Virus record (IMG/VR): IMGVR_UViG_3300024243_000022
Coordinates: 1-56,719 of that record
DNA length: 56,719 nt
From: a virus
Lineage: Duplodnaviria > Caudoviricetes
Strand: one strand, 5' to 3'
Part shown: piece by piece, positions 8,205-43,806 of the stretch
How positions within the stretch are numbered: position 1 is the stretch's first letter
Layout: every line of letters starts with the position of its first letter
Notes under the pieces: model-generated
Told to the model about the DNA's origin: nothing
Seen by the model: only the letters and a program-made list of their open reading frames with translations
Databases searched by the model: none
Made by a program: the position numbers and the translations under genes

Positions 8205-8474
8205 TTACCTCAGTACCATCAAAACTAGATTTGGTGTACCAGCAGACGCTTTAGCGTAAAATATAGTCTCACCTTTAGCTTGTGCTATATCTATATTAAA
8301 AGTTTGATTTGCTAAAGTTAAGCCATTTACTGTACCTGCTGTAGTATCAGATATATAAAATGCTGTTCCGTCGTCTACCCAAAAACTAATTGACCCGCAG
8401 CTTTGTGAAGCACCTAGCGATATAGCAGTGTAGGTACTTGTGTTTAGCGCTGTTACGACCAGAGGTTGAATCAT
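8205..8474 (-). CDS. hypothetical beta-rich protein
   Basis: Coupled to the stop of the giant gene (ATGA). Confidence 0.65.
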   Translation of the reverse strand: MIQPLVVTALNTSTYTAISLGASQSCGSISFWVDDGTAFYISDTTAGTVNGLTLANQTFNIDIAQAKGETIFYAKASAGTPNLVLMVLR

Positions 8475-11400
8475 AATGTACTCCTTTGTTTTTCGTACTT
8501 GTTTGGTTTAAAAGTTTGCTTCAAATTTCTATTTAGCCATTTGCCAGTTATATAAGGTATCAAGAGCTTGGGCTTAGAAGTATACACTGCATTGTTGTAT
8601 GCACGTATCTTGTCTGCTAAGTCCATTAATATTTCTGGGTCTTGCTTATATAGTGGCAAAGTGTAAAATCTGTTGTAGCGTCGTAGTATGTCAGACCGGT
8701 CTGCAGTGTACTCTCTACGTTCTTGCGTCTCTGACCATTGACGGTCACGGATAGCCGAGAGTCTTGACGGACTGAATGAGAAGAGTCTGAGTATAACTTC
8801 ATACGGTGTGCTCTTCAGTGGTGTCGTACCGTGATACACAGGTGCATATGAACCAGTAGTAAGTCCTTCAGTAAACTCTCGTTTACCCTTGATGATATTA
8901 CCCAGTGCTCTAGGTGCTAAGTCCTCAAGTCCTTTCTCAGTTTCACCAAATGTGAAGTGCTCGTACGCTTTGGCAAAGTCTGACCATATGGCAAGTGGTG
9001 CACCACCAATCTCTATGACCTTCTTAGGAAATGGACTATTCATCTGGAGTGATCCAGTCATGTCTATTCCAGTTGTTGCACCAATTAAACCTGTACGAGC
9101 TATAGTATCTGATCCAGTTAAGTCTTCAATAAATTGGTAGAACCTTTCTTCTGGGTCTTCGTGTCCTGGCCACATAGCTTTGATAAGTGTAGTTAACATA
9201 GTAGCTGGTACTCCAGCCAATAGAGCTGGCGCCATCAGCATATACAGTGGCGCAATAATCTGTTTCTTGTTAAGTCCAAGGTCAAGCATGTTCAGTATGT
9301 AGTTGTGCTGAAACTTCATAAATGTAAAGGGCAAGTCAAGTAGTCGTATCTTCTGGATAACCCAAGGCTTGGCTGCTTTACCATATGTACCATGAGCTTG
9401 ACTTGATATTTCTTTGGCATGCTGCAGCAGTTCTTTATGCGCTTTCTCAATCAGCTTGGGGTCTTTAGAAGAGTTCAAGGTAGTGTTAATTCTCTTATAC
9501 ATCTCCTTATCAGACTGTCTTAGAGCTTTATAAGCAGCAAATATAGTTGTAGCACGATTCACCTTCTCAGTTGCTCCAAACATGACCATAGCGTGTTTTA
9601 GAATCTCATTAAAGACTCTAGAACCTATACCTTGTATTACACGAGCAGCCTCATAGTTGAAATTTGCTTCATCCCAGCCTTGACTTGTTATGTAGTCAAA
9701 TATCGCCTTATCTTCAGCTGATAACGTGCCTGAACCAACCAGACTATGTATACCTAGTTTCTTAGATAAGCCAGCTCTGTATTTTGTATACTGAGTAACA
9801 CTGTTTGCTACATGCTTTCCAGACTGTGCAAGATTTAAGCCAGTGTAACCAGTAATTGTAGCAGGTACAGCAAGTACCATATTTGTCAAGTTGACTGCTG
9901 CTGAACTTACACGACCACCTAAGTACATGACGACTGCTAAAGCTTTGAAGTAACCAACAGCTCTGTCAAACCCTGTATCAGGCTTTAAGAAGAACTGCAT
10001 GTATAAACGTGTTGCTTTATATAATCCTTTCTGGGTAGTAGGATCAATTGCTTTTTTCTTTACTTCAGTCAAGTAGTCCGTGTACGTGCCTTTCTTGTTA
10101 GTCTTCTGCCAGTCTTTAAATGACGTTTCACGACCTGTAAAAGCTAGGAGCATGTTACGTGTTGTTGTACGACGTGCTTCACCAGCAGCAAGTCGCTGTG
10201 CGTAACTTGTAAAAGCTTTATTCATGTCAGTCTCGAAGCCAGCGTAGTATCTTTTAGATCGCTGTTTACGTGATGTCAGTCTACCTTTTATCTTATACAC
10301 GTCTGCAATGTTCTGCGCCATTTGATTGTGTATAGACTGCAGTACTTTAGTATCAGCGTCTTTCTTAACATTTTCTTCTGCGTTCTTAAGTAACGAGTCC
10401 ATAGATGTTATGAGCCCAGGAACATCAAAGATCACATCAGTAGGTGTAGGAGTTACTTTTATACTTACGTCATAACCGAGTGCTTTAAGACGTCTTGCTT
10501 CCACACCAACTGGCATTCTTGTATTAATCAACTGACGTGTCTTATTTACCCAAGGAGAAGACAATACGTTCTGTGGCAGATACCCTGAGTAAGTCTTTGT
10601 CACTAACTTACCGTTTGAGTGCTCCGCTTTTAGAACATAGGCTTTACTCTGTCGTTCTCTAGGAAAGTAAGTACCTCGTAAGTCGCCTATCCTTGTTATT
10701 AACTGGCTAATGGCGAGCTGCCGTGTTTTGCCTTTGTCATCTGTATATTGTGCTGTAGGAGCTTTAAGTCCATTCTCTTTGGCACTTGCAACTTGGCGTC
10801 TTAGCTCTTCTGTTAGTAGTGTAAAGCCTCGGTCAGTCAACAAACGTGCTTCTTTCACCATGTCCAGAGATGCTTGATTGAACTTGCGTTTCTTGAGCAT
10901 CTGCTGCTCGAATGATATCATCTTGCGTGTGGCTTCTTCTTCAGTCTTAGCTCTTCCAACAACTTTGTTAGATGGGTTCATCACTAGCCATGTAGTCTTC
11001 ACCACTTTAGCGTTCTCAGTCTTTGTCACTGTGCTCTTAGTCTTTACTGAATATCCTCTACCTGTTGCATCTGTCTGCAGTAAGTAGTCATTAGCAATCT
11101 TGTAAGCTTTCTTGTAGCCACTAGTCTTCTTAAGATTCTTAATCAAGTTAGTCCAGTTACCGAGCACGAACTTCTCAATAGTATATTTAAGGTTATCTTC
11201 TCGTAATGCATGACTCATAACCTTCTTGGCTTGTGCACCACGTCTCAAGTAATACTCAGGAGAGTTAAACAGTAAGCCCATGATACCGATGTTCTGCTCA
11301 TGTGCTTTCCTTGTGAAGCCGTCACTTTCATCAAGCTTGTCAGATTCGTCAATCACGTTGTTGAATAGCTTAGCAATCTTAGCACGTAAAGGCACTTTAG

Positions 11401-14400
11401 AGGTTTCTTGATCTTTCATCACGTCTCTAAAGAGCTTCTCTGCCTCTGCCTTATTGTCACCCAATATCTCGCCATCTAGTTTAGCTTGTTCAGCTTTAGT
11501 ACGCACCTTAGCTGCGAGTGGTACTTTATCAGCAGATACGGTGTCGATAAGCTCTTGATTAAACTCAAACGAATTAAATTCTTTACCTGCTTTTGCGTAG
11601 TCTTTTATCTTGGTTGTAGTTAACTTACCACCGCCATATGGTTTAAATAACTTAGTAATAGTTTGTGGAAGATACTCTGTGTACTTCTTTACTATACCAT
11701 CAACTATTTGAATACCTTCAGTTGAGTCATATATCCATTTACCATCAGCATCTTGTCTAAAATTACTAGGCCAACCTTCTATAGCTGCTACATGATAAGG
11801 AGTCTTTGCCCAGATAAGTTTTGTGTGTCCTAGTGCTACGGCTTCCATAACCGCTCGTTTAAGAGCTAACTGAGTAGAATTGTCTTTAAATGGAAGATCG
11901 GGCTGTGCTCTAAGACTTTTTTTAGCTAAGAATGCTGGTTCTATAAGTTTTTCCATAACTTTTGAATCACGAATTATACTTTCTACGTCTTGTACAGAGA
12001 TAGATTTACGTACGTCTCTAGACAATCCACGTATTATATTAATCGCTAAATCTTCTGCGTCTACGTAAATAGCGGGACTATATGGACCAAAAGGACCAAA
12101 GAAACGTCCTTCCACGTGTATTTTAAAGTTTCTTTTTACGTCTTTATCATCTAAGTTTTTCTTCGTTATAGGAATAGTATCGTGCATCTTATTGACTATA
12201 TAGTTTACATAATGTTTAACTTTGGCATTTCCAGGTTCAGTTAACTGCCTTAGTTTAAGCGTATTTTTATCATATGTTTTTTTATCAGTATACCCGTACT
12301 TCTTTGCGTCTTGATGAGTATCAGACTGAATCTCGTGTATATATAATCCGTCACCTATAGAAGATACACGTAAATGTACTACTTCATTTTCTAACCTAAA
12401 GTGTTTACCTTTTTTACTAAGTTCAGTGTCTTTTATAGCTGGAATTTGTATAATTATCTCTTGGTAGTCTTTTAAACCTGTGGCTGTTGGTAAAGTAACA
12501 TAGTCAGCTTCAACAGGCGCATTTCTATAAGCATCGCTAAATAAGGCGTCTTGTACCTCAGTTAAGTAACCTTGATCTTGTACAGCGTCTCGAATAATTC
12601 GCCAGTCTTCTACTAAGTCTTCGTCAGCAAGTAAAAAGTCTTTGCTTTGTTTACTCATTAAGTCAGAGCTAATTGGAGCTAAACTATCTCTAAGAGAATT
12701 ACTGTCTAAAGATGTGTCGTTTAAAACATTAATTAAAAGATGATCCCGTACTTCAGGATATACACCTAAATTGTCTAACTTATCACGAATTATGTCTCTG
12801 AATACTATATACTTATCATCCACAGCTACAATTAGTGTAGCAAAAGTATAAGACTCGCCTTTATTAAAATCACCATTTATATCTGGATACTCAGTTTCAT
12901 TAATAGGCTTTGTTAAAAGTTCATTAACTCTATTAACAGCAGGTCCCGAAAACCCACTAGCTCGTTCAGCTATATAGTCTTCTGGATTTATACCTTCTTC
13001 ATGTAACTGATCAAATAGTGTTATATCGCGACCACCTAGTACAGTCTCATCCATTCTTGCTTTTAGGCCGTACTTAGCTAAGTGGTCCATAACTTGCTGC
13101 TTAGTAACTTTGCCTTTCTGTTTCTGCATCCACTCACGTAAATTAGAAAAGAAGAACTCTTCTTTTACATGAATCGGCATAGACTTGTTTGTCCAAGACT
13201 TAAATGTGTTAAGCCAGTTTTCAGGAGTCGCTTTACCTGGACCCTTAGCTTGTATGAAGTCGTCTTCAAGTCGTGAAGAAAACTTAGGTGCCAACTTAGA
13301 AGCTTTAGGTTTCGTTGGCGGTTTTAAAGGCAGTATATCAGCGTTCTTTCTGTCTTTGGCTTTCTCTAGTACGGTAATATTTCCAGGTGTTGTCATACCA
13401 CCCTGAGGCTTAGCTTTATAACCACCAAAAGCGTCATCATATACTTTTGCAAAAGCTATCATGCCAGAAGTTAAAAAATCATATCGTTGTTCTAACTCAG
13501 CTTTTAACTTCGTGTACTCCCTAAATTTAAAAATACCTATTTCAGCTGTTAAAGCTTGCTTAGCATTCCATATTTTCTTTCTAGCTTGTACGTCAGTATC
13601 TTCAGCTTTTATACCTGTTGCAGCGTCCCAAATTTTAAAAACTTCAGGTCGCATAGCATAATAAACTCGATCAGCTACTTCTACAGGAGTAATTGCAATT
13701 CTGTCGTTTACCGACGTTTTATCGTAAGCCGACTTTGCAGGGAATTTTATTATTTTAGAAGCTAAGGGAATATCATTACGTTTTTTAACTACAGTTTGAT
13801 TTAGTATTTTTTGATCCCATATAACGTAGTTAAAAGTTTTTCTTTCGTATCTTTTATACCGCGTCCAACCATCAATGAAACGTAAACCTGGAATACCAAA
13901 TTTTTTAAACTCTAATGACGCAGCTTTATCTGATCCAAGCGCTTTAGATACGGCTCTGTATATATAACTACCTAGAGTATTATTATTTATACGCCGCATG
14001 TGAAGCTTGTTTTTGTATGGCACACTGTTTTTTCTTTGTACACTGTTAATAAGCTTGTGCATCTTTGCTCGTGCCATTGGTTTTTGTTGACCTAATGTTC
14101 TATCCCAATGAAAAAGTTGACTTATAGCAGGCGAAGGCATTTCTAACTTATACAAAGACGCGTCTTTATTAGTTGAGCGCGTAAAGTTTATCTTAGCTTG
14201 TTTAAGTTTCCAAGCATTTATAAGATGCCCTGCTTGATCATATAAAGGCAGTAGCCGTGCATTTTCAAAAGATGCTTGATCACGACGTAAGGCTTCAAGT
14301 TCAATATCTAAATACCACAAAGCATCTTCATATATTTCTTGTGTGTCGTGTATATGTGTAGTACCATTAAATGCAAATCCTACATATGCAAGTGCTATAT

Positions 14401-17400
14401 CTTCAGCAGTATTAGCGTCAACAAACTGGCCGAATAAAATTTTAGTATTATATGCAGTAGGATTGAACTTAATTTTCTTGCCATTTACTGTTACACCTGT
14501 TATATTATACGCTGGAAACTGAAAATACTTATAGTAGTCTAATCCAGTAGCCTTCATTTGGGCCCCATAAAAACCCCAACCATAAGTTTGTACGCCTGAT
14601 CCAGTACTCATTTTATCTAAACGCGGTCTACCGTGTTTAAATCTTGATTCTTTTTGCCAAGTAACTGGACTGCCATGATATACTCTAGACGCAAGTGGAG
14701 CTGAACTTGTTAGTGTAGTATGTCCAAGCTTATTTCTGAGAATGTTACCGACGATCAAACCCATCTCATATCCAGATAAGTTCTCGGTCATGCCTAACTT
14801 ACGTTTCAACCAAGCTTTAAGCTTGAAAACCATCTCTTTATAGAACGGGAGCTTTGTGTTAGCTTCATTCTGGATGTAGTGCATCAGAGTTTCTTCTTCC
14901 CATACTTCTGGTTTACTAGGATACTGTTCCTTTACCCAGTTATGTATATCGAGCAGGACTTTATCTGTCTTGATTCTCTTGGCTGCTGACGCTATGAAGC
15001 TGTTATACATTGCTTTGAATTGCTTGTCTGAAGCCAAAAGTAGATGACCGCCTTCATGGAGTATAACACCCTTGGCTCCACCAGCTCTCACAAGATTCTC
15101 AAGCACTAAATATAGCTTGCCTTTCCAGTAAACACCAGCAACTCTGTTCTTTTCACCTTTGGAGTACTTAGGATCGTCAAAGTCAAGTTCCTGAGTTGAG
15201 TCATATTCTTCGAGGTTAAACTCTTTCTTCACTCCATCTGGTAAGTCTTCCTGGTAGTCTACTGCCTCTACTTTTGACAGGGGGTCATCGATACCCATGT
15301 CTTGCATATCCTGCACAACTTGTGACTCTACGCCTCGAATTTTTATTTGTTCAGCTTTAGTTCTTTTAATGACTTTTTTCTTAGGTTTGGAGCCTTTCTT
15401 AGCTGGTTTCGAGCTCTTTTTAGCTTTCTTAGTAGTAGCGCTAGTCTTCTTCTTTTTAGTCGATTTTTGGCTATCTATAGGCTCCGACTTTTCTACTTTT
15501 TTCTTAGCTTCGCTCTGTGATTCAAGCTCGCGTATTTTATCTTCTATTTGTTTAGCAAATTCAGGGTCTTTCTTCTTATACTCAGTCAGCATACCTTTTA
15601 ATTCAGCTATGCGCTTGTTAATAGCTTTAACAGATGGAGTACCACCAAAGAACCTATCAATAGCTGCACTCATTTCTTTTTTATCGGTGATAGGAGAAGA
15701 TTCTTCTTTTTTAGCTTCGCTCTGTGATTTCTTAAGGTTCATTGTAGCATGCAGACGCTTTACTTTTAAATCATGAATTATCTTTTTTGTATCAGTTATA
15801 ACGTCTTTATGTGCGCCACCTTCTTTGGCATGCTTTAATACATACTGCTGCCCGGCTATCTTGGCGTTAATTTTATCTAACTCAGATTGTTCTTTTGATA
15901 TTACTTTTGTGTCTTTATTCTTTGGCTTTGGAAGCTTGGTACTCTTCTTTTTTGTCTTTGGCTTTTCTACTTTCGTCTTCTCTTTAGACTTAACCTGGCC
16001 TTTCTTATCTTTTGTAATTGTCTTCTCTTTGAACTTGGGTTTCCAGTCAATTGGTACCCAGCGAACTCTGCCGTCATCAAACTCAGCTCGTTTTATAAAA
16101 CCTTTTTTCTCAAGGACTTTAAATGTCTGTGCAGTAACACCAGTTTTAGGACGCTCTTCTTTTTCCATGGCGTCAATGGCTTTTTGATTAAGCCACTTGA
16201 AATTACCAACAATTTTCTTACCATCCATAATTACAGGATAAGGCTTATAATCGTTTTCATCCAGGAGAGATTCCTGTATTTGACCTAAAGCTAGACGTTG
16301 AAATTTACTCAGAGGCTTTTGCTCGCTTGCTTCAGCAGCGTTAAACGGTGTAAACTCTTTCTCTGTTTCATTCGATTGTACATATGGGCCAACTTTAGTC
16401 TTAGTATTTTGTTTTTTAAGCTGAGCTGAATATACTGTACTTGCAAACTCCGCTTGCATTACTTGTACTTCTTTTTTGTCTTTTGGTAGTCCTGTGTCAT
16501 TCGTTTTTTTATTTACATACGCAGTAAAGCTGGAGTGCTTCTTAGCAAAAGTTAACTTTTGAGCAAGAGACATCTTACCCCATTTTATAGTATCTGGCAC
16601 AGGTAGTATAGAGTCTTTGTCTTTTACTTCTTCTGTCTCTTTCTTTAAGCCCTTAGTCTCGACCTTAATACTCTTCATATTAGCTTCGCCACGTAACTCA
16701 TTCTTCTGAGCTGCTGAGTATCCTTTCCAGTCTTCTTCTGTTACGTTGGCAAGCTTGATTACTTCAGCATCAGATAGCTTCTTCGGCTTAGGTGTTTTCT
16801 TGGGTGCAGCTTCTGCTTCACCAGTGTCTTCACGTATAACAAAACCACCCTTAACTTGCTGAACTTTAAACTTTTTCTCTGGATCAAGCTTCCGTATCTT
16901 AAGAGCACCTTCTGCTTTTTTCTTTGTTGTATATGGCTTAGTACTACGTGCAGGAAGTAAGTCACTTTCAAGCATGTCACTTAAGTCTTCTTCAGTGATT
17001 ACTTCTTCTGCATCTGTGGTTTCTTCAGTTTCTTCTTCCTCTGTTTCTTCTATTGTTTCTTCTTCAGCATTCTCAGCAAACTGAGTAGTAGTTGGTTCTT
17101 GCTGTACTTCGTCTTGAATACTGTCAGGTACAGATAAGTCTTTTTTAATACCTGACTTAGTTGCTGCTACAAATGCACCAGCACCGCCTATAGCACCACC
17201 TGATACACCAGATTCTACTATACGTTTTATATTCTCAGGTGTCAGAAACTTCTCATCTGTATTAGCAACAATATTAAGTATTGAACTTACTTCCTGACCA
17301 GCTTCCTGTAACATTTCTGATGGTATATTTGTAAGCAGTTTTTTAGCAGCACGTTTTAAGTATGACCCAGGCATGCCTTTAGCAATAGCACCTACAAAGT

Positions 17401-18298
17401 CGTCAACTAAACCGATATTGCCACCTGCGAGTTCCATAAGACCAGAAAGAACGCCAAAACCTAGTGAAGACATAGGAGCGTCTACGCCGTGCTCAGTCAA
17501 AAGCTCTCCGTAATTAAGACCTGCTTCAAGCTGAGATACTGTACCAACCATACCAGCTTTAGTAAGCTTCGCAACAGTTTTACGACCGCTAGCCTTCATA
17601 TAGCCTTTAAGTAAGGCTTTTTCGAGTTGTTTCTCAGTAGCCTCTCGTGCAGTTTCTTTTATGACCTTATTTTTGATTTGGTGTGCAACTGCTGCCTTAG
17701 CTTTTTCTCTGACCATTTTTCTCAAGCCATGTTTTACTACAGAGTATCCGACACCAGCAGATAGAGTTGTACCGATAATTGTTTCAGCTATAATAGGAAC
17801 TTGGGATGCAATTAAACCTTGAAACCAATCTACTCCTGTTCCTATACCTTTTACTTCATCAAGACTCAGAGTAGGATACTGACTTGCTTCGTCTTCGTAC
17901 TGCGCGTACTTATCCATACTAAAATCTTGAACAGCACTACCAGTGTCTTTAACAATGTCTATACCAAGTTTTTCTCCTGCGTACTTTGCTAAAGAACCAA
18001 GCACACCACCAAAGCCAGCCACACCTTGTTTAGTCGTAGCTATACCTTGTTTTAGACCGCGCTCTACATCTCCTAAGCGCAGCTTATTTGCTTCAGCTTG
18101 ACGCTGTCTTAAAAGCTGGTGCTGCCAGTCTTCTTCATTAATACCAGACATAGTACGCGCGATTTGACCAAAGGGAACGCCTTGCTCAACAAGTGGTCGA
18201 ATATCTACACCTTGATTTACTGCTAGACCTATAGCGATCTCTTGATCTGACATACCTTCTTGTAAGGCCGTCATATAATTTTCAGGAGTAAAGGGCAT
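8471..18298 (-). CDS. giant (3275 aa) polyvalent virion/ejection protein with zincin metallopeptidase, ART-like/LPD-type and C-terminal helical modules
   Basis: ILHEGGHLL zincin motif; VYHGSP...GSGVQTYGWGFY...NYVIWD module; IHEIQSD...PDLPFK module; last gene of the ejection-protein block. Confidence 0.85.
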   Translation of the reverse strand: MPFTPENYMTALQEGMSDQEIAIGLAVNQGVDIRPLVEQGVPFGQIARTMSGINEEDWQHQLLRQRQAEANKLRLGDVERGLKQGIATTKQGVAGFGGVLGSLAKYAGEKLGIDIVKDTGSAVQDFSMDKYAQYEDEASQYPTLSLDEVKGIGTGVDWFQGLIASQVPIIAETIIGTTLSAGVGYSVVKHGLRKMVREKAKAAVAHQIKNKVIKETAREATEKQLEKALLKGYMKASGRKTVAKLTKAGMVGTVSQLEAGLNYGELLTEHGVDAPMSSLGFGVLSGLMELAGGNIGLVDDFVGAIAKGMPGSYLKRAAKKLLTNIPSEMLQEAGQEVSSILNIVANTDEKFLTPENIKRIVESGVSGGAIGGAGAFVAATKSGIKKDLSVPDSIQDEVQQEPTTTQFAENAEEETIEETEEEETEETTDAEEVITEEDLSDMLESDLLPARSTKPYTTKKKAEGALKIRKLDPEKKFKVQQVKGGFVIREDTGEAEAAPKKTPKPKKLSDAEVIKLANVTEEDWKGYSAAQKNELRGEANMKSIKVETKGLKKETEEVKDKDSILPVPDTIKWGKMSLAQKLTFAKKHSSFTAYVNKKTNDTGLPKDKKEVQVMQAEFASTVYSAQLKKQNTKTKVGPYVQSNETEKEFTPFNAAEASEQKPLSKFQRLALGQIQESLLDENDYKPYPVIMDGKKIVGNFKWLNQKAIDAMEKEERPKTGVTAQTFKVLEKKGFIKRAEFDDGRVRWVPIDWKPKFKEKTITKDKKGQVKSKEKTKVEKPKTKKKSTKLPKPKNKDTKVISKEQSELDKINAKIAGQQYVLKHAKEGGAHKDVITDTKKIIHDLKVKRLHATMNLKKSQSEAKKEESSPITDKKEMSAAIDRFFGGTPSVKAINKRIAELKGMLTEYKKKDPEFAKQIEDKIRELESQSEAKKKVEKSEPIDSQKSTKKKKTSATTKKAKKSSKPAKKGSKPKKKVIKRTKAEQIKIRGVESQVVQDMQDMGIDDPLSKVEAVDYQEDLPDGVKKEFNLEEYDSTQELDFDDPKYSKGEKNRVAGVYWKGKLYLVLENLVRAGGAKGVILHEGGHLLLASDKQFKAMYNSFIASAAKRIKTDKVLLDIHNWVKEQYPSKPEVWEEETLMHYIQNEANTKLPFYKEMVFKLKAWLKRKLGMTENLSGYEMGLIVGNILRNKLGHTTLTSSAPLASRVYHGSPVTWQKESRFKHGRPRLDKMSTGSGVQTYGWGFYGAQMKATGLDYYKYFQFPAYNITGVTVNGKKIKFNPTAYNTKILFGQFVDANTAEDIALAYVGFAFNGTTHIHDTQEIYEDALWYLDIELEALRRDQASFENARLLPLYDQAGHLINAWKLKQAKINFTRSTNKDASLYKLEMPSPAISQLFHWDRTLGQQKPMARAKMHKLINSVQRKNSVPYKNKLHMRRINNNTLGSYIYRAVSKALGSDKAASLEFKKFGIPGLRFIDGWTRYKRYERKTFNYVIWDQKILNQTVVKKRNDIPLASKIIKFPAKSAYDKTSVNDRIAITPVEVADRVYYAMRPEVFKIWDAATGIKAEDTDVQARKKIWNAKQALTAEIGIFKFREYTKLKAELEQRYDFLTSGMIAFAKVYDDAFGGYKAKPQGGMTTPGNITVLEKAKDRKNADILPLKPPTKPKASKLAPKFSSRLEDDFIQAKGPGKATPENWLNTFKSWTNKSMPIHVKEEFFFSNLREWMQKQKGKVTKQQVMDHLAKYGLKARMDETVLGGRDITLFDQLHEEGINPEDYIAERASGFSGPAVNRVNELLTKPINETEYPDINGDFNKGESYTFATLIVAVDDKYIVFRDIIRDKLDNLGVYPEVRDHLLINVLNDTSLDSNSLRDSLAPISSDLMSKQSKDFLLADEDLVEDWRIIRDAVQDQGYLTEVQDALFSDAYRNAPVEADYVTLPTATGLKDYQEIIIQIPAIKDTELSKKGKHFRLENEVVHLRVSSIGDGLYIHEIQSDTHQDAKKYGYTDKKTYDKNTLKLRQLTEPGNAKVKHYVNYIVNKMHDTIPITKKNLDDKDVKRNFKIHVEGRFFGPFGPYSPAIYVDAEDLAINIIRGLSRDVRKSISVQDVESIIRDSKVMEKLIEPAFLAKKSLRAQPDLPFKDNSTQLALKRAVMEAVALGHTKLIWAKTPYHVAAIEGWPSNFRQDADGKWIYDSTEGIQIVDGIVKKYTEYLPQTITKLFKPYGGGKLTTTKIKDYAKAGKEFNSFEFNQELIDTVSADKVPLAAKVRTKAEQAKLDGEILGDNKAEAEKLFRDVMKDQETSKVPLRAKIAKLFNNVIDESDKLDESDGFTRKAHEQNIGIMGLLFNSPEYYLRRGAQAKKVMSHALREDNLKYTIEKFVLGNWTNLIKNLKKTSGYKKAYKIANDYLLQTDATGRGYSVKTKSTVTKTENAKVVKTTWLVMNPSNKVVGRAKTEEEATRKMISFEQQMLKKRKFNQASLDMVKEARLLTDRGFTLLTEELRRQVASAKENGLKAPTAQYTDDKGKTRQLAISQLITRIGDLRGTYFPRERQSKAYVLKAEHSNGKLVTKTYSGYLPQNVLSSPWVNKTRQLINTRMPVGVEARRLKALGYDVSIKVTPTPTDVIFDVPGLITSMDSLLKNAEENVKKDADTKVLQSIHNQMAQNIADVYKIKGRLTSRKQRSKRYYAGFETDMNKAFTSYAQRLAAGEARRTTTRNMLLAFTGRETSFKDWQKTNKKGTYTDYLTEVKKKAIDPTTQKGLYKATRLYMQFFLKPDTGFDRAVGYFKALAVVMYLGGRVSSAAVNLTNMVLAVPATITGYTGLNLAQSGKHVANSVTQYTKYRAGLSKKLGIHSLVGSGTLSAEDKAIFDYITSQGWDEANFNYEAARVIQGIGSRVFNEILKHAMVMFGATEKVNRATTIFAAYKALRQSDKEMYKRINTTLNSSKDPKLIEKAHKELLQHAKEISSQAHGTYGKAAKPWVIQKIRLLDLPFTFMKFQHNYILNMLDLGLNKKQIIAPLYMLMAPALLAGVPATMLTTLIKAMWPGHEDPEERFYQFIEDLTGSDTIARTGLIGATTGIDMTGSLQMNSPFPKKVIEIGGAPLAIWSDFAKAYEHFTFGETEKGLEDLAPRALGNIIKGKREFTEGLTTGSYAPVYHGTTPLKSTPYEVILRLFSFSPSRLSAIRDRQWSETQERREYTADRSDILRRYNRFYTLPLYKQDPEILMDLADKIRAYNNAVYTSKPKLLIPYITGKWLNRNLKQTFKPNKYEKQRSTL

Positions 18299-38081: not shown

Positions 38082-38591
38082 TTAAACTCCACTCAAGTCT
38101 CGGATGATCACAGTGGGGAGCCCAGACTCATCTTTGCCCATCGAAATTGCACTGTTGAGTCCCTGAATGTCCTTGGTCAGCGCTTGAAACACGCCAGAGA
38201 GTGTGGCAATATCTCTAACACTCTCTTCATCGACTGCCTCAATCGCACTGCGAGCTTTTGCCAGTAACTTAGTTTCTAAGTCAGCATATAATTCGACAAG
38301 TGCGAGTTGCTTGGCCATGTTAAACACTTGAAGTCTTTTTCGGTTTTTATCCAGGAATTGATCTGCGCGAACGGTAAAGATATCTTCACCCTCTAAAAGC
38401 TCTTCACCCTCTGTACCTTCAACCAGAGAGAAGGAGGACGAATCGTCTTCTGAAAACCACTGCTGCCATTCTTGTTCTTTGGCAATCTTCTCCATCATAG
38501 AGAGAGGTAAACCTAGAGTATCTGCAAGATCTTTAAGAGGGACGCCTAGAATCTCGTAAGATAATCTAGGTACTTTCATATTGGTTTCCAT
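38082..38591 (-). CDS. putative terminase small subunit
   Basis: N-terminal HTH-like segment; immediately upstream of TerL. Confidence 0.6.
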   Translation of the reverse strand: METNMKVPRLSYEILGVPLKDLADTLGLPLSMMEKIAKEQEWQQWFSEDDSSSFSLVEGTEGEELLEGEDIFTVRADQFLDKNRKRLQVFNMAKQLALVELYADLETKLLAKARSAIEAVDEESVRDIATLSGVFQALTKDIQGLNSAISMGKDESGLPTVIIRDLSGV

Positions 38592-38617
38592 ATCAGCTCC
38601 TTTTACTTTCTTATTTA

Positions 38618-38646
38618 ATTATAAGCTATATATTTGGATTTGTACA
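38618..38646 (-). promoter_or_regulatory. sigma70-type promoter for the structural arm
   Basis: TGTACA-N17-TATAAT on the minus strand, upstream of the AAGGAG SD of 38591. Confidence 0.6.
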
Positions 38647-38802
38647 GCTTTATTTGAAAATAAAATACAGTAATACCACTCGTGGGAAAAGTGTATCATA
38701 CCATATTATATAGGCGAATTTTTTCTACAGTTTTGATCTTTTTTAGTATAAGCACATCAGTTTGGCAGAGCAATACACGTATTATAGTATTTTAGTATCG
38801 GG

Positions 38803-39060
38803 GTTATACTTGTGTAAAAAGTGTATATTTTAGTAAAAACAGAGAAATTTTTTTGTTTAGTTTCTCGGTGTTATACTTGTGTAAAAAGTGTATATTTTAG
38901 TAAAAACAGAGAAATTTTTTTGTTGGGATTCACAGAAGAGTGGTGTAAAAAGTGTATATTTCACTGTGTACGAGAAATTTTTTTGTTGGGATTCACAGAA
39001 GAGTGGTGTAAAAAGTGTATATTCTATTGTTTACGAGAAATTTTTTTGTCGGGATTTACA
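38803..39060. repeat. four tandem 63-67 bp repeats (GTGTAAAAAGTGTATATT...GAGAAATTTTTTTGT)
   Basis: Core starts at 38812, 38879, 38943 and 39006. Confidence 0.92.
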
Positions 39061-39197
39061 TAAGCAGAGCTTATTAACCCACGGGCCCCCTATACCCCAT
39101 ATTATATATTTATTTTATTTTAAAATATTTTTAAATAAATATTATATTATATATTAAATTTTATTAAAAATATATAAAAATTTATTTAATTTTTTTA

Positions 39198-39226
39198 TTT
39201 ACAAATTTATTTTTTTATTATATAAT
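39198..39226 (+). promoter_or_regulatory. early promoter embedded in an A/T-only tract
   Basis: TTTACA-N17-TATAAT. Confidence 0.7.
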
Positions 39227-39262
39227 ATATATATTAAATAAATAATAATTATTTATTTAATA

Positions 39263-39274
39263 GATCTTTGACAT
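39263..39274 (+). promoter_or_regulatory. boxA-like antitermination motif
   Basis: GATCTTTGACAT about 30 nt after the predicted TSS; resembles rrn/lambda boxA. Confidence 0.4.
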
Positions 39275-39428
39275 AATATAAAAGCTTTTATATGAGAAGG
39301 CTAGAAGACTTCACTCTTCTGTAAGAAGAGCGCGAGACTGAATAGCCTGCTTATAAGAAGAGTGTATAACTGTGAGACTCTGATACTGAAGAGTCTCACT
39401 CGATGGCCTAAGCACAAGGAGACTTACT

Positions 39429-39614
39429 ATGAAATCACTAAACTTTGAAACTAACGAAGCTTATATCGCATGTGATTTTGAAGAAACATTCGACAGAACA
39501 CACTTCAACGAATACTTGAAGAATACTGAGATACATGATATGACTGAGTATCTCGAAACTCTTGTACCAGTGTACAGAGCATCGCACACTGACTTTGTTA
39601 AACGCCCGTACTAA
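39429..39614 (+). CDS. small acidic early protein
   Basis: AAGGAG SD; first ORF of the early arm. Confidence 0.7.
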   Translation: MKSLNFETNEAYIACDFEETFDRTHFNEYLKNTEIHDMTEYLETLVPVYRASHTDFVKRPY

Positions 39615-39623
39615 TCAACACAA

Positions 39624-39661
39624 ACATCCGAACAGCGCTCGGGCGATGTAAAACTAAGCGC
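39624..39661 (+). ncRNA. putative pseudoknot RNA element, copy A
   Basis: CATCCG-AACA-GCGCT-CGGGCGATG-TAAAACT-A-AGCGC; intergenic; covaries with copy B. Confidence 0.5.
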
Positions 39662-39693
39662 GTTTACAACACTCAACTTATAAGGAGTACATC

Positions 39694-40020
39694 ATGGCCA
39701 AAGCAAAAGAACAAAGCGTACAGTTGACTAACACTACAGAGCTGAAAAGCTGGACCAAACCTGAACTTGTAACTGCAGTAATTGAGTATGAAGACTTGCT
39801 CCTTGCACTTGAGAGTAAAATCTCAAGTGTGAAGGTGCCTGTAACAGGGCGCAAAGAACAAGTACTGAAAATCTTGAAGTCAGCTGGACACATAAGCGTC
39901 TCAGCTATTGCGACGCGCATTGGCATCAGCCAACGCAATGTGTCTTCGCAGATGACATACCTCCGCAAGGACGGTCATGCAATCGCGACCGACTCGCTCG
40001 GTCGTAAATTTCTTGAGTAA
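39694..40020 (+). CDS. winged-HTH DNA-binding protein, paralogue 1
   Basis: GRKEQVLKIL...SVSAIATRIGISQRNVSSQMTYLRKDGHAI. Confidence 0.85.
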   Translation: MAKAKEQSVQLTNTTELKSWTKPELVTAVIEYEDLLLALESKISSVKVPVTGRKEQVLKILKSAGHISVSAIATRIGISQRNVSSQMTYLRKDGHAIATDSLGRKFLE

Positions 40021-40095
40021 TTAACTGATGTCTTCTAGCCTTCTATATGCGCTGCTCAATAACGAGCAGCGCAACCCTTAACAAGGAGAATGACT

Positions 40096-40311
40096 ATGGC
40101 TATTGTTTATGTAGTAATGCTTGACGTAAAGTATGAAGGTTCAACACTCAGAAATTTGTTTAGCAATGAAAACGCAGCACGCAAGTACTGCGCGGCTAAT
40201 GCCAACGACGTCGAGTATGATGACGTGAGCTTCTCAATTCACGAGATGACTGTGATTGACGAAGTAAATGTTACCGAGGCTGATGACAAGTATGATCATT
40301 ACGACTACTAA
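40096..40311 (+). CDS. small acidic early protein
   Basis: Follows repeat 1; second ATG fits SD spacing. Confidence 0.75.
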   Translation: MAIVYVVMLDVKYEGSTLRNLFSNENAARKYCAANANDVEYDDVSFSIHEMTVIDEVNVTEADDKYDHYDY

Positions 40312-40367
40312 CCTTAACATGCGCTGCTCAATAACGAGCAGCGCAACCCTTAACAAGGAGGATGATT

Positions 40368-40553
40368 ATGACTAACCCTAACCGATCTAAAGTTCTCAAT
40401 GCTGTTCAAACATCAATCAAATCAAACGGTTATTACCGTAATGATATGATTGCCAAACAACTCGGTATCCCTAAGCGTGAGGTAAGCAAGATGCTTACTT
40501 ACCTTAGATGCGATAACGGCCACGACTTCACGCGGTATAGAATGAACCGCTAA
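40368..40553 (+). CDS. winged-HTH protein, diverged paralogue
   Basis: IAKQLGIPKREVSKMLTYLR aligns with the IGIS.RNVSSQMTYLR helix. Confidence 0.75.
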   Translation: MTNPNRSKVLNAVQTSIKSNGYYRNDMIAKQLGIPKREVSKMLTYLRCDNGHDFTRYRMNR

Positions 40554-40610
40554 CCTTTAACATGCGCTGCTCAATAACGAGCAGCGCAACCCTTAACAAG
40601 GAGAATGACT

Positions 40611-40802
40611 ATGTCTAAACGTGTTAACATTTCAATGCCTGAAGAATTATATGCAGACGTTAAGAAATATAATCTTAATACTTCTAAAGTATGTCAAAAA
40701 GCTTTAGAGACTGCAATACGATTTGAGAAAGGTAAACGCCGACACCGTCAAAGCATGATTGATAATGCTCATCACATTATCAAAGCTTTACAGCGTGCTT
40801 AA
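40611..40802 (+). CDS. ribbon-helix-helix protein, CcdA-antitoxin-like
   Basis: KRVNISMPEELYADVKKYNLNTSKVCQKAL RHH pattern. Confidence 0.7.
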   Translation: MSKRVNISMPEELYADVKKYNLNTSKVCQKALETAIRFEKGKRRHRQSMIDNAHHIIKALQRA

Positions 40803-40818
40803 AACTCAATGCCTTAAC

Positions 40819-40853
40819 CATCCGACGCGTCTGGGTGATGTAAAACTTGGCGC
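40819..40853 (+). ncRNA. putative pseudoknot RNA element, copy B
   Basis: CATCCG-AC-GCGTC-TGGGTGATG-TAAAACT-T-GGCGC. Confidence 0.5.
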
Positions 40854-40885
40854 ACTAACTCTAACCCTTAACAAGGAGGATGATT

Positions 40886-41227
40886 ATGACTGAAACATTA
40901 TTTACATGTATGACACTGGCTGAAGCATTAACTAAAGAAGCTGACGCAGTAAGAAAAACTGAAGACGACATGATGTCTTATGTCGAATGTTACAACGGCC
41001 TCGAGCGTATACACCACGATCTGTATACACATGCTGAACTCGATGATCTTAGCGAGACGCTTGAAGCGAACGGCACATGTGACATAAGCATGGACCTTGT
41101 ACGAATAATGAACATATGTCTTGACGGCTTCGGTAAATCTGACGTAGCAAATACACTACGACTACCGATTAGCAACAAGATAATGCAACTCGTACACTTT
41201 CTTCATTATCTGCACAACATGAGTTAA
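40886..41227 (+). CDS. hypothetical early protein
   Basis: Preceded by the AACCCTTAACAAGGAG half of the cassette repeat. Confidence 0.75.
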   Translation: MTETLFTCMTLAEALTKEADAVRKTEDDMMSYVECYNGLERIHHDLYTHAELDDLSETLEANGTCDISMDLVRIMNICLDGFGKSDVANTLRLPISNKIMQLVHFLHYLHNMS

Positions 41228-41434
41228 CCACTAACAAACACCAATGCCTCATTGCTTATGATTTACTATCATAGGCGGTGAGGCATTGATGATAGTAAGC
41301 CCGGCCCAGTGGGAGAGCGCGGCCAAGTATCAACCAGTACAGAAGATCACGGTCCAGCATCAGCTCACCATCGTCCCAATTTACTATCACCCGGCCCCGC
41401 TGGAGAGCTCGGCCAAGCGCGATACCCAGTCCCA

Positions 41435-41482
41435 CACCAATTGCACCCGGCTATTTACTTCCCCGTGCTTTGGTGATATAAT
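41435..41482 (+). promoter_or_regulatory. repeated phage promoter, copy 1
   Basis: CACCAA-N29-TTGGTG framing TTTACT-N17-TATAAT, with extended -10 TG. Confidence 0.85.
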
Positions 41483-41544
41483 TATATTATAAAGAGTGAG
41501 GGAATAATCCTTCATTTAATAAATACCAAGCAAGGAGGTCCAAC

Positions 41545-41874
41545 ATGGCCAAAGAATTGATGAGTATGACCAAAGAAGAATTGGTGGCAATGATTGAAGC
41601 ACAGTCAGTAGAGATCAACAAAGTGAAGGATGCAGCTGGTGGCCGGAAACTTCAGGTATTGAAGATACTTCAGACTGGAGACCACACCACAGTGAAAGCC
41701 ATCGCTGCAAGAATCGGTATCTCAGACAGGAATGTCTCATCTCAAATGACGTACCTCCGCAAGGACGGATATGCCATCGCAACAGACAGTCTTGGCCGGA
41801 AGTTTCTTGAATCCACAGGTCAGGTGCATGAATCAGCTGGAGCCAAGGTTATAACCAGAAAGAAAGCAGTATAA
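41545..41874 (+). CDS. winged-HTH DNA-binding protein, paralogue 2
   Basis: GRKLQVLKIL...IGISDRNVSSQMTYLRKDGYAIATDSLGRKFLE, near-identical core to 39694..40020. Confidence 0.85.
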   Translation: MAKELMSMTKEELVAMIEAQSVEINKVKDAAGGRKLQVLKILQTGDHTTVKAIAARIGISDRNVSSQMTYLRKDGYAIATDSLGRKFLESTGQVHESAGAKVITRKKAV

Positions 41875-41883
41875 CAAATAACC

Positions 41884-41910
41884 TGTGCGGTGAGTCTATC
41901 TCACCGCACA
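41884..41910 (+). promoter_or_regulatory. intergenic hairpin before an RBS
   Basis: TGTGCGGTGAG-tctat-CTCACCGCACA perfect 11-bp stem. Confidence 0.65.
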
Positions 41911-41932
41911 ATTTAATCAGGAGGAACTCAGT

Positions 41933-42061
41933 ATGGTTGATTATTATGATGAGTACAGCGACGAAGAGTATGAGGATCTTGACATTGAATTCTTTGTACC
42001 CGACTCGCCAGGTAGACGGTGTAACTGTGAAGACGCACCGTGTTGTGGATGCAATCAATAA
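41933..42061 (+). CDS. 42-aa acidic protein with C-terminal CNCEDAPCCGC cluster
   Basis: Read manually; AGGAGG SD; not in the ORF track. Confidence 0.7.
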   Translation: MVDYYDEYSDEEYEDLDIEFFVPDSPGRRCNCEDAPCCGCNQ

Positions 42062-42076
42062 CGGGAGGAACTCAGT

Positions 42077-42265
42077 ATGGCCAAGAAGAGAGTCTTTAAA
42101 GAGCATATCGTCACGGCTGTGATCATCAATCACCAGCTGTATGTGATGGACTTTGTTGAGCAGTATGAATCAGTAGAACATGCGATCTTTGCAAAGTTCG
42201 GCATCGACGCTGACAATGAAAATTATCACGTACTGTGGAGTGGTCCACGATACCACATAGGTTAA
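42077..42265 (+). CDS. hypothetical protein
   Basis: GGAGGAACTCAGTATGG start region shared with the 41933 ORF. Confidence 0.7.
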   Translation: MAKKRVFKEHIVTAVIINHQLYVMDFVEQYESVEHAIFAKFGIDADNENYHVLWSGPRYHIG

Positions 42266-42269
42266 CAGT

Positions 42270-42304
42270 AATGCCCGGGCATCTCAATGTGTCCGGGCAT
42301 TTTT
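42270..42304 (+). terminator. intrinsic terminator
   Basis: AATGCCCGG...CCGGGCATT stem followed by a T run. Confidence 0.8.
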
Positions 42305-42399
42305 ATTTACTATCATCGGCGGGACTGGAGAGCTCGACCAAATAAGATCTGGATTCTAGAAAAATGAGCGACCGCTCATTGTGGCTACTTCATAGCTAC

Positions 42400-42915
42400 A
42401 TTTGCTCTAAGCTACTGATTTTACTACATATAACCAGAGGTAAAATCGAGCTAAATTTAGGTCTTTTTATATTCTATTAACTCTTTTTATCTAACTACTT
42501 GTTTTTATTATATATATTAATAAAATTGAAAGAATTAAGAGAAATATAATATAATAGAAATACAAGGTTGTAAAAGACCTGGGGTTATTGTATATATAGG
42601 CTACGGTGTATGTATTATTGATCCTTTTTACCCTTCTGTAGCTTAAAAGGATAGAAAAGTTTTTATTGAAATTAGCTCATGCTCTTCAAAAAAGGACAGA
42701 ATATCTAATAAAATCAGCTACTTAGAAAATAAGAGTCATTTTAAGCAAAATGAGAATACCTAGTTATATCAGCTACTTAGAGACAAAGAATTACCGCGAG
42801 GCTCTTTGTAGACTACGCACTTTTTGAGAGAATACCTAATAAAATCAATAGCTTAGGCCCATTTTCTCGAAATATACACGAAATAAATTATCTAATAATA
42901 TCAGCTACTTAAGTT
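42400..42915. repeat. iteron-like 21-bp repeats (CTAATAAAATCAGCTACTTAG); candidate replication origin
   Basis: Direct copies at 42705, 42760, 42836 and 42892; inverted copy at 42407-42427; AT-rich gap between; non-coding. Confidence 0.7.
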
Positions 42916-42988
42916 TGAGCCGTCATTCATTTTTTATTAGCTCATTTAACCTGAAATATTAACCCACAAACACACAAAGTGCGCTCAA

Positions 42989-43036
42989 CACCAATTATCT
43001 CTGGCTATTTACTTTCCAGCTCTTTGGTGATATAAT
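42989..43036 (+). promoter_or_regulatory. repeated phage promoter, copy 2
   Basis: CACCAA-N29-TTGGTG; TTTACT-N17-TATAAT. Confidence 0.85.
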
Positions 43037-43091
43037 TATATTATAGAAGTGAGAAGGAATTAAAAATCAACACTTAAGCAAGGAGTCCCGT

Positions 43092-43433
43092 ATGAGAGAC
43101 ACATTAACACTAGAGGCTATCCGTGAAGACTTAACCAGTGTGCGCAAGCTCATCAGAGTGCGCAAGCCAGAAACAAAAGAGTATGACTTAGACTACTACA
43201 ACGCAAGAGACTTACTTATTAGGTTGAACAACAACTTATACACACTACCTATCTCTGGTTGGCTAGAGAATGAAGGCACACTAGATATAGACATGGCACT
43301 AATTGATCTAATCTACTTCATCAACAACCACAAGCTCAAACAACTCAATGAAGCACTTTATCAAACTATTAATCTGGTTGACGCGATCAGCTACAGATGC
43401 GCAACACGATTTGACTCACTGACCGAGGTATAA
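43092..43433 (+). CDS. hypothetical protein
   Basis: AAGGAG SD after promoter copy 2. Confidence 0.75.
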   Translation: MRDTLTLEAIREDLTSVRKLIRVRKPETKEYDLDYYNARDLLIRLNNNLYTLPISGWLENEGTLDIDMALIDLIYFINNHKLKQLNEALYQTINLVDAISYRCATRFDSLTEV

Positions 43434-43473
43434 CAAAGTTAAAATTAACACCAAAAGCAAGGAGGCCAACATC

Positions 43474-43806
43474 ATGGCACAGCATGATCCAAGACACCGC
43501 AACTCACTCCACAAGCTAAGTAACAATGAAGCATACCTTAACTTAGGGTTCATACCCATCACGACAGGCAGAGGCCAACAAGCTCTGTACATGGTAACTA
43601 CGTTCGGCTCCTATTTCTGGTTAACAGACTTAAACGGCGACGCTCTGCCCAAGGACTCAGACAAACAACTCTCATTCTGCATGTACGATGGAGACACTAA
43701 CGCACTGCTCTACTACAAAGACATTCCAAACTTAGTTACTAATGTCGTCATGCACATCTCTCTGGCTGTTGATGACTACATACTTAAAACAAGGAGGCCA
43801 AACTAA
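43474..43806 (+). CDS. hypothetical protein
   Basis: AAGGAGG SD. Confidence 0.75.
   Translation: MAQHDPRHRNSLHKLSNNEAYLNLGFIPITTGRGQQALYMVTTFGSYFWLTDLNGDALPKDSDKQLSFCMYDGDTNALLYYKDIPNLVTNVVMHISLAVDDYILKTRRPN

Follow-up and report, generated by a model that had tools for sequence, protein, structure and literature searches.

A long-range inverted repeat bracketing two early genes of a Caudoviricetes phage, a candidate RNA clamp

Background

In ribosomal RNA (rrn) operons, the promoter is followed by long-range RNase III stems that flank the rRNA and are conserved and covarying. In the early mRNA of phage T7, RNase III cuts local hairpins in the early leader and between early genes, giving base-paired protective ends. 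Here we describe a long-range inverted repeat in the early region of a phage (Duplodnaviria; Caudoviricetes) represented by IMG/VR record IMGVR_UViG_3300024243_000022, a linear virus record of 56,719 bases with a completeness estimate of 43%, the whole of which was analysed and is called the window. The repeat encloses two genes, one for a small acidic protein and one for a winged-helix regulator, and an earlier note on this DNA had read the region as an rrn-like leader consisting of a promoter, a boxA-like motif and a long-range stem. The predicted helix shares with the rrn stems and the T7 sites about two helical turns of double-stranded RNA flanking a functional unit, and at 22 bp it reaches the ~20 bp or more of double-stranded RNA, built from flanking sequences, that is typical of RNase III stems. 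Unlike the rrn stems, it is specific to one phage and comes with no supported boxA/Nus module; unlike the T7 sites, which are local hairpins, it spans a range of ~700 nt.

Closer counterparts are found in bacterial mRNAs, where long-range helices of up to 14 bp between 5' and 3' untranslated regions (UTRs) control nuclease access (PMC5737220, PMC3868564). In hbs of B. subtilis, a 14-bp helix of this kind limits cleavage by RNase Y, and in icaR of S. aureus the 5'/3' UTR pairing creates a substrate for RNase III (same sources). Like these two as there described, the phage locus has complementary untranslated segments at both ends of a coding unit, whereas its 3' partner is an intercistronic spacer in a polycistronic operon, its helix is longer (22 bp) and two cistrons are enclosed. 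Unlike in icaR, the predicted phage helix does not overlap a Shine-Dalgarno sequence. Among the titles of the literature matches listed, none dealt with gene-bracketing long-range stems in phage early operons, which is a weak basis for claiming their absence.

The early region also invites comparison with the PeSL cassettes of T4-type phages, which are described as short repeated regulatory stem-loop cassettes acting as recombination points for modular shuffling (PMC2839356). Repeated cassettes with a stem-loop likewise flank small ORFan genes in the plastic early region of the window, and the two are alike as shuffling points only. The window cassettes, in contrast to the PeSLs as described there, consist of a hairpin plus a Shine-Dalgarno sequence without a good promoter or U-tract terminator, and the long-range stem is an inverted repeat whereas PeSLs are direct repeats.

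The inverted repeat and its predicted fold

The 15-mer AGAAGGCTAGAAGAC at 39295-39309 has an exact reverse complement at 40030-40044, and exact copies occur in the window at these two places only, one per strand. A repeat search delimited arms of 19 nt (39295-39313 and 40026-40044) that are 95% complementary and 712 nt apart. Outside the core, ATAT at 39290-39293 pairs with ATAT at 40045-40048 if G39294 is bulged, which adds four further A-U pairs and bears out the 15-bp stem with a 4-bp extension over one bulge that the earlier note had described. The full helix thus has 22 bp, interrupted by one G bulge and a single U.U (1x1) mismatch, and the duplex of the arms by themselves has a predicted energy of -30.0 kcal/mol. 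No other perfect inverted 15-mer with arms 50-2000 nt apart exists in the window.

Both arms are untranslated and lie on the strand of the genes, downstream of the early promoter P1. The left arm (39290-39313, plus strand) is in the 5'UTR, 116 nt 5' of the first ATG, and ends 102 nt 5' of the Shine-Dalgarno sequence at 39416-39421, with which it does not overlap. The right arm (40026-40049, plus strand) begins 6 nt past the winged-helix stop codon and directly adjoins the first copy of a 68-nt cassette repeated further down the operon. This placement, in non-coding DNA and bracketing a gene pair, strengthens the case beyond that of the bare repeat. We further compared the pairing of the leader (39285-39320) with each intercistronic spacer of the operon, and found that the spacer after the winged-helix gene stands out (-31.7 kcal/mol, z = -6.4, 0 of 300 shuffles as good, best shuffle -22.7), while the five other spacers are at chance level (z from -0.5 to +0.8).

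Folding of the 871 nt from 39230 to 40100, which the earlier note had proposed as a check, gave a minimum free energy structure and a centroid that are both closed by the long-range stem (-266.8 kcal/mol; z = -13.7, based on only 20 shuffles). Partition functions for five model transcripts of 826-2028 nt assign the 15 core pairs a mean pair probability of 0.98-0.99, and forcing the right arm to remain unpaired costs 10.5-16.7 kcal/mol, so that the stem is thermodynamically dominant in the sense RNA. Once the right arm is blocked, the predicted structure is a local, irregular 76-nt leader hairpin (39285-39360, plus strand; -28.0 kcal/mol, z = -4.25, a value that none of 200 shuffles reached), of which the left arm forms the 5' strand and which therefore competes with the long-range stem. 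The models thus suggest three competing strands, namely the left arm, an imperfect local partner that would be made first, and a perfect distal partner that would follow ~700 nt later. The stem is confirmed as an observation, being real, well placed and specific to one phage and, by these folding models, thermodynamically dominant.

A proposed clamp between leader and intercistronic spacer

We favour, at a probability of roughly 0.4, the reading that the stem is a functional RNA helix, a clamp between the 5'UTR and an intercistronic spacer that would probably serve as an RNase III substrate or as an end protector. Transcripts from P1 would first fold the 76-nt leader hairpin; the spacer after the winged-helix gene, once transcribed, would capture the 5' strand of that hairpin, and the resulting 22-bp helix would close the cistrons of the acidic ORFan and the winged-helix regulator into one domain. 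The length of the helix would suit the double-strand-specific RNase III of the host. No RNase III gene (PF00636) was matched in the window, and the enzyme would therefore have to be supplied by the host. A cut would release the 5' leader and the cassettes further down, yielding a two-gene mRNA with base-paired and protected ends. Left uncut, the helix would hold the 5' and 3' sides together and so restrict the access of nucleases, as in hbs. The arms share a strand, with a promoter upstream and no strong terminator between them, and we infer that a single transcript carries both, that the helix is formed in vivo, and that it is cleaved with stabilisation of the product.

A number of observations weigh against this reading, starting with the RNA itself. 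The 712-nt loop holds two translated open reading frames (ORFs) and the left arm would be captured first by the -28 kcal/mol local hairpin, both of which make formation of the helix in vivo uncertain. A weak terminator-like hairpin at 39985-40005 lies 5' of the right arm. A cruder ungapped score that tolerates G.U pairs places the stem (score 40) below several matches in coding sequences or repeat arrays. Perfect 15-mer inverted repeats with arms within 2 kb are not rare either, since at least one was present in 11.5% of 200 first-order Markov windows (mean 0.165), and the bare repeat is thus only mildly unusual. The remaining observations against it come from related loci.

Comparison with related loci

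We searched for relatives with the winged-helix protein, which recovered L007/L008 in IMG/VR (47%) and four metagenome contigs (L056-L059). An alignment of eight homologues then yielded 26 IMG/VR loci, together with two genome-bin contigs that duplicate two of them, giving 30 loci after removal of duplicates. Neither blastn of 38600-41600 nor tblastn of the winged-helix protein gave a match among 50,697 phage records. Scanning IMG/VR for the exact arm returned 46 stretches with one arm, none of which had the second (0/46), and these were taken as chance matches. A scan with the loop motif of the hairpin that precedes the winged-helix gene gave at least 105 single matches, and none of the 151 arm-scan or loop-motif loci screened had a winged-helix gene or similarity to the leader.

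The locus L056 (60% protein identity) has terS, direct repeats, a GC box, an AT region, a promoter, a leader and the winged-helix gene arranged as in the window, and its direct repeats share AAAAGTGTAT and TTTTTTGTCGGGA with those of the window. No repeat encloses its winged-helix gene, and there is only a local leader hairpin, in which the homologue of the left arm, AGAAGTAAGAAGAGTCTC (962-979), pairs with 1000-1017 (78%). This is the counterpart of the leader hairpin at 39285-39360, and a fold of 501 nt of L056 is unremarkable (z = -1.41). The alignment further showed that the window retains, at 39342-39360, the homologue of the local 3' strand (1000-1017), so the distal arm is an addition and not one half of a hairpin that was split by an insertion. 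Insertion of the gene pair into an ancestral hairpin loop is ruled out on the same ground.

A second locus, L060 (60% identity), has a short leader and shares with the window the sequence AACTGATGT after the stop codon; past it, where the window has the right arm, L060 carries a local 15-bp hairpin. The arms are therefore neither conserved nor covarying in these two relatives, an outcome that the earlier note had listed among those that would refute its reading.

We next screened for comparable stems more widely, by taking, for each winged-helix gene, the longest Watson-Crick run that its 700 nt of upstream sequence can form with its 150 nt of downstream sequence, and comparing it with 60 shuffles. 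The set comprised 34 genes, three in the window and 31 in 26 loci; the duplicates L007/L008/L063, L068, L080, L086 and L087 were left out, as was L061, whose flank is too short. Two of the 34 genes exceeded all 60 shuffles, the first of the window (15 versus a shuffle maximum of 12) and that of L079 (20 versus 14). The other 32 genes have runs of 7-11, within the shuffle range.

L079, the only comparison that speaks in favour of the RNA reading, is a distant relative (~45% identity) with an AT-rich promoter region (TTTACT-N17-TATAAT, 159-187) and two inverted repeats in tandem. The first (321-352 and 656-687) encloses its first gene, which runs from the ATG at 374 to the end of the stop codon at 646, and the second (690-720 and 1059-1089) encloses its winged-helix gene (756-1043). 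The two stems have 27/32 and 30/31 Watson-Crick positions, and all six other positions are G.U in the sense RNA, with no A.C; if the mismatches were random transitions, six in six would be expected with a chance of about 1/64. When the RNA from 640 to 1170 is folded, the second stem closes the structure (z = -4.44). The arms are unrelated in sequence to those of the window, and the likeness is therefore one of design and not of conservation. They also carry promoter-like hexamers (TTGATA-N16-TATAAT, 669-696, with mirrored copies on the other strand), so that a DNA-level reading is possible there, which is a further point on the negative side. A search for relatives of the first gene found L079 itself only. 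The flanking genes, at 374-646 and from 1168 on, are direct duplicates that have diverged, the second apparently with a frameshift.

Alternative explanations

The rival that survives best, although we consider it somewhat unlikely, is that the complementarity is without function. It would then be due to chance or be a side effect of the shuffling of cassettes in an early region prone to recombination, favoured by the purine-rich leader (AGAAG repeats) opposite a pyrimidine-rich cassette flank. The frequency of such 15-mers in random windows and their lack in the closest relatives fit this view, and so does the ancestry of the arms. The right arm shares homology in its 3' part with the normal 5' flank of cassette copies 2 and 3, and the left arm with the leader of L056, which means that both descend from pre-existing, partly complementary sequence. 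Moreover, gene order differs between the two phages, with acidic ORF, motif and winged-helix gene in the window and winged-helix gene, motif and acidic ORF in L056. This points to active shuffling and, on this comparison, would be consistent with PeSL-like exchange at repeated cassettes. Perfect inverted repeats of at least 13 nt are also common in the related loci (53 versus 11 expected), most of them within repeat arrays, as in L075.

Other evidence runs counter to a functionless origin. A crude ORF map puts the non-coding share of the window at ~7.5% (40% within 38592-43100); both arms fall in this small fraction and bracket the gene pair exactly. The helix runs 7 bp past the 15-mer, only this spacer pairs with the leader, and L079 has the same design independently, with G.U pairs as its sole exceptions. 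We roughly estimate the chance of a repeat so placed at a few in a thousand per window, which is not negligible across very many windows.

A role of the repeat in DNA, with AGAAGAS half-sites as targets of a regulator of the phage, for which the enclosed winged-helix protein is a possible candidate, is improbable in our view, and is the more serious of the DNA-level alternatives when set beside a mobile cassette. With the leader carrying copies and an inverted pair lying 3' of the gene, autoregulation by looping or roadblock would be possible. The leader has the densest AGAAGAS cluster of any 150-nt stretch in the window (39303-39362; 39303+, 39314-, 39324+ and 39356+), with four matches in 60 nt compared with 0.76 per kb window-wide, and it contains the palindrome CTCTTCT-GTA-AGAAGAG; exact TAAGAAGAG occurs in the window at 39322 and 39354 only, both in the leader. 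Each arm holds two heptamers, two more are in the upstream 63-nt repeats, and the L056 leader keeps two copies. Inverted site-like repeats also abound in related regulatory DNA, for example the 21-nt repeat around the array of L075 and sites of the TAATAAAATCAAGTACTTA type. Against this, a dimeric winged-helix protein needs no exact long-range inverted copy of 15-22 bp, the exactness extends across the spacer GGCT between the half-sites, and similar sites are not present at the other early promoters (41454, 42526, 43008). The mismatches of L079 are strand-asymmetric (six G.U versus no A.C), which is not expected from DNA binding.

Very improbable is a non-autonomous mobile cassette, in which the 750-bp segment would be bounded by terminal inverted repeats of 15 bp and flanked by a target duplication of 5 bp. 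The terminal repeats are perfect and ATATG occurs directly outside both arms (39290-39294 and 40045-40049), so the segment formally resembles an element with a target duplication. However, the left junction is contiguous ancestral leader, with ACATG then AAGAAG at the homologous place in L056, and at the right junction there is a match to cassette copies 2 and 3 (A-Y-ATGCGCTGCTC). The arm is unique in the window, and the single-arm stretches of IMG/VR hold no second arm. Neither resolvase (PF00239) nor tyrosine recombinase (PF00589) genes were matched in the window, a ~43% complete record from which absence in the whole phage does not follow; DDE and HUH transposases were not searched for. On the same two negative searches in this incomplete record, an invertible segment of the Gin/Hin type is not supported.

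The rrn-like model of the earlier note depends on the promoter and on the element that follows it. P1 (TTTACA at 39198-39203 and TATAAT at 39221-39226, plus strand, spacing N17) is where that note had placed it, fits 11 of 12 consensus positions and is the top plus-strand sigma-70-type site in 38400-43600, an AT-rich region in which the number of such matches is not above chance (19 found, 16.0 expected). Equivalents are found at the same relative place in L060 (3889-3917, TTTACA-N17-TATAAT, 11/12) and L056 (885-913, TATACA-N17-TATTAT, 9/12), and this strong promoter is, together with the thermodynamically dominant stem, the part of the model that stood. At the predicted 5' end of the transcript lies an AU-only 14-bp hairpin (39232-39262, plus strand), and the fold of 39227-39294 reaches -10.4 kcal/mol (z = -2.49, equalled by 1 of 200 shuffles).

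The supposed boxA did not fare as well. The sequence GATCTTTGACAT is present at 39263-39274 (plus strand) with a perfect TTGACA inside it (39268-39273), and it matches 9 of 12 positions, with three mismatches, of the E. coli rrn boxA consensus. Matches at least this good number 83 in the window compared with 80.96 expected, a count that 47 of 100 shuffles reach, and 16 of the 83 are better (two mismatches or fewer). The aligned place reads GTTGTTTGACAG in L056 and just ...AATGACATG in L060, with TGACA and not the boxA core as the common part. On these comparisons GATCTTTGACAT was judged not to be a boxA, and antitermination, as the earlier note had read it here, was rejected as unsupported. 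A second promoter starting from TTGACA was also considered and rejected, as no acceptable -10 is found at 16-18 nt in the window or L056. From P1 to 41300, no strong intrinsic terminator that would require antitermination was found on the plus strand; the only site is the weak hairpin at 39985-40005, inside the winged-helix gene, with AAA between stem and T run. The full model of NusB/NusE antitermination at boxA plus RNase III excision of a stabilised, possibly circular first transcript is thus hardly credible, as it keeps the rrn-like succession of promoter and long-range stem but has a boxA at chance level that is not conserved, no strong terminator to read through before 41300 and a stem that is not conserved, and the sequence says nothing on circularisation.

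Enclosed genes, cassettes and genomic context

All the items that the earlier note had placed inside the stem could be located, as could the end of the stem at the start of the cassette array. After the left arm comes a local hairpin formed by GTGAGACTC and GAGTCTCAC (39372-39380 and 39391-39399, plus strand), followed by the acidic ORFan (61 amino acids, 39429-39614, plus strand), which has a strong Shine-Dalgarno sequence, no family in Pfam, PHROGs or Atlas, and no copy at the equivalent position in L056 or L060. A hairpin or pseudoknot-like motif with the conserved loop GGGYGATGTAAAACT (39625-39675, plus strand) lies 5' of the Shine-Dalgarno sequence of the winged-helix gene. The loop motif has a second copy at 40833-40853 and a third in L056, 3' of its winged-helix gene. 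We observed the corresponding hairpin before a Shine-Dalgarno sequence at 39625-39675 and 40825-40870 in the window and at 1345-1400 in L056. Its stem is GCGCT/AGCGC in the window and GCTGC/GCAGC in L056, a change that looks compensatory; the proposed second stem of the pseudoknot (TGTAAA/TTTACA) is not retained in L056. The first winged-helix gene (39694-40020, plus strand) encodes 108 amino acids of the HTH_11/HTH_24/MarR type (HTH_11, E = 7.5e-6; HTH_24, E = 2.3e-5).

The 68-nt cassettes, each a 10-bp hairpin plus a Shine-Dalgarno sequence, start at 40035, 40307 and 40550, with a partial copy at 40863; the hairpin of the first copy (40048-40073, plus strand) opens the array, and further hairpins are at 40320 and 40563. 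These three to four repeats contain no strong promoter (best 9/12, 40078-40106) and no T-run terminator. Within the array region, the 65-residue early protein at 40605-40802 has an above-cut-off match to the CcdA antitoxin family (PF07362, E = 3.8e-8), and no adjoining CcdB-like gene was noticed.

Further repeated elements mark the rest of the early region. A 58-nt cassette that contains a promoter (TTTACT-N17-TATAAT, its -10 extended by TG) is present in two copies, at 41434-41491 and 42988-43045, and also 5' of winged-helix paralogues in L057 (410-470, 1660-1700) and L058 (120-150). In several relatives the ends of early operons are marked by the inverted repeat ACTATCATC...GATGATAGT, which is conserved while its GC-rich spacer varies; its sites are at 41231-41299 and 42300-42322 in the window, 1640-1674 in L056, 1-30 in L057, and 4660-4700 and 5155-5175 in L060. 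A search of Rfam gave just two sub-threshold matches to microRNA families, both on the hairpin at 41227-41305 and judged spurious. The motif CTAATAAAATCA(A/G)(G/C)TACTTA is repeated in both orientations in the AT-rich intergenic region between early promoters and conserved in distant relatives (window 42406-42431 and 42695-42912; L057 1037-1500; L066 4698-4868; L067 4772-4979), and is probably an array of protein-binding sites.

Upstream of the early region, terS and terL are on the minus strand and end at 38591. TerL has at most 50% identity to any deposited phage, with Burkholderia phage BcepC6B as top match, and 39% in IMG/VR. The window also codes for a portal protein, primase-helicase, DNA polymerase, exonuclease, ligase and thymidylate synthase. 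Among the structural genes is an ORF of 3,274 amino acids (8471-18298, minus strand) with no PHROG match at E <= 0.001. The sequence words of the window occur in seawater metagenomes, which suggests, as a lead only, a marine phage. Between terS and the rightward early genes are five direct repeats of 63-67 bp (38678-39064), with a GC box at 39080-39098 on their 3' side and an almost pure A+T stretch of ~190 nt between this box and the stem-bearing region. Arrays of four to five such repeats occupy the same place between terS and the early promoter in L056 (420-720) and L060 (3330-3700); the GC box after the arrays is conserved, and the repeat core AAAAGTGTAT / TTTTTTGTYGGGA is common to the window and L056. 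For the arrays, a role as iterons, as packaging site or as operator array is possible, and an iteron pattern search for relatives gave no matches.

Implications

A wider view, which we consider rather unlikely, is that a group of marine phages packages early protein-coding cistrons as closed-stem RNA domains, from which host RNase III would excise end-protected mRNA modules, much as rRNA is excised. Such domains would occur once in the window phage and twice in tandem in L079, where the sequences are unrelated to those of the window, and cassette shuffling would create the helices and replace them rapidly. Should the repeat instead be a by-product, it would be a case for caution, as one perfect 15-mer repeat is expected by chance in about every nine phage-sized windows. 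If the helix is formed and processed, it would provide a phage case in which long-range pairing between a 5'UTR and an intercistronic spacer defines an mRNA module, and would thereby join the local-hairpin RNase III processing of phage early transcripts, the bracketing of rRNA operons and the 5'/3' UTR clamps of bacteria. It would also imply that such helices evolve quickly from shuffled regulatory cassettes, which would explain their lack of conservation and mean that screens based on covariation would miss them.

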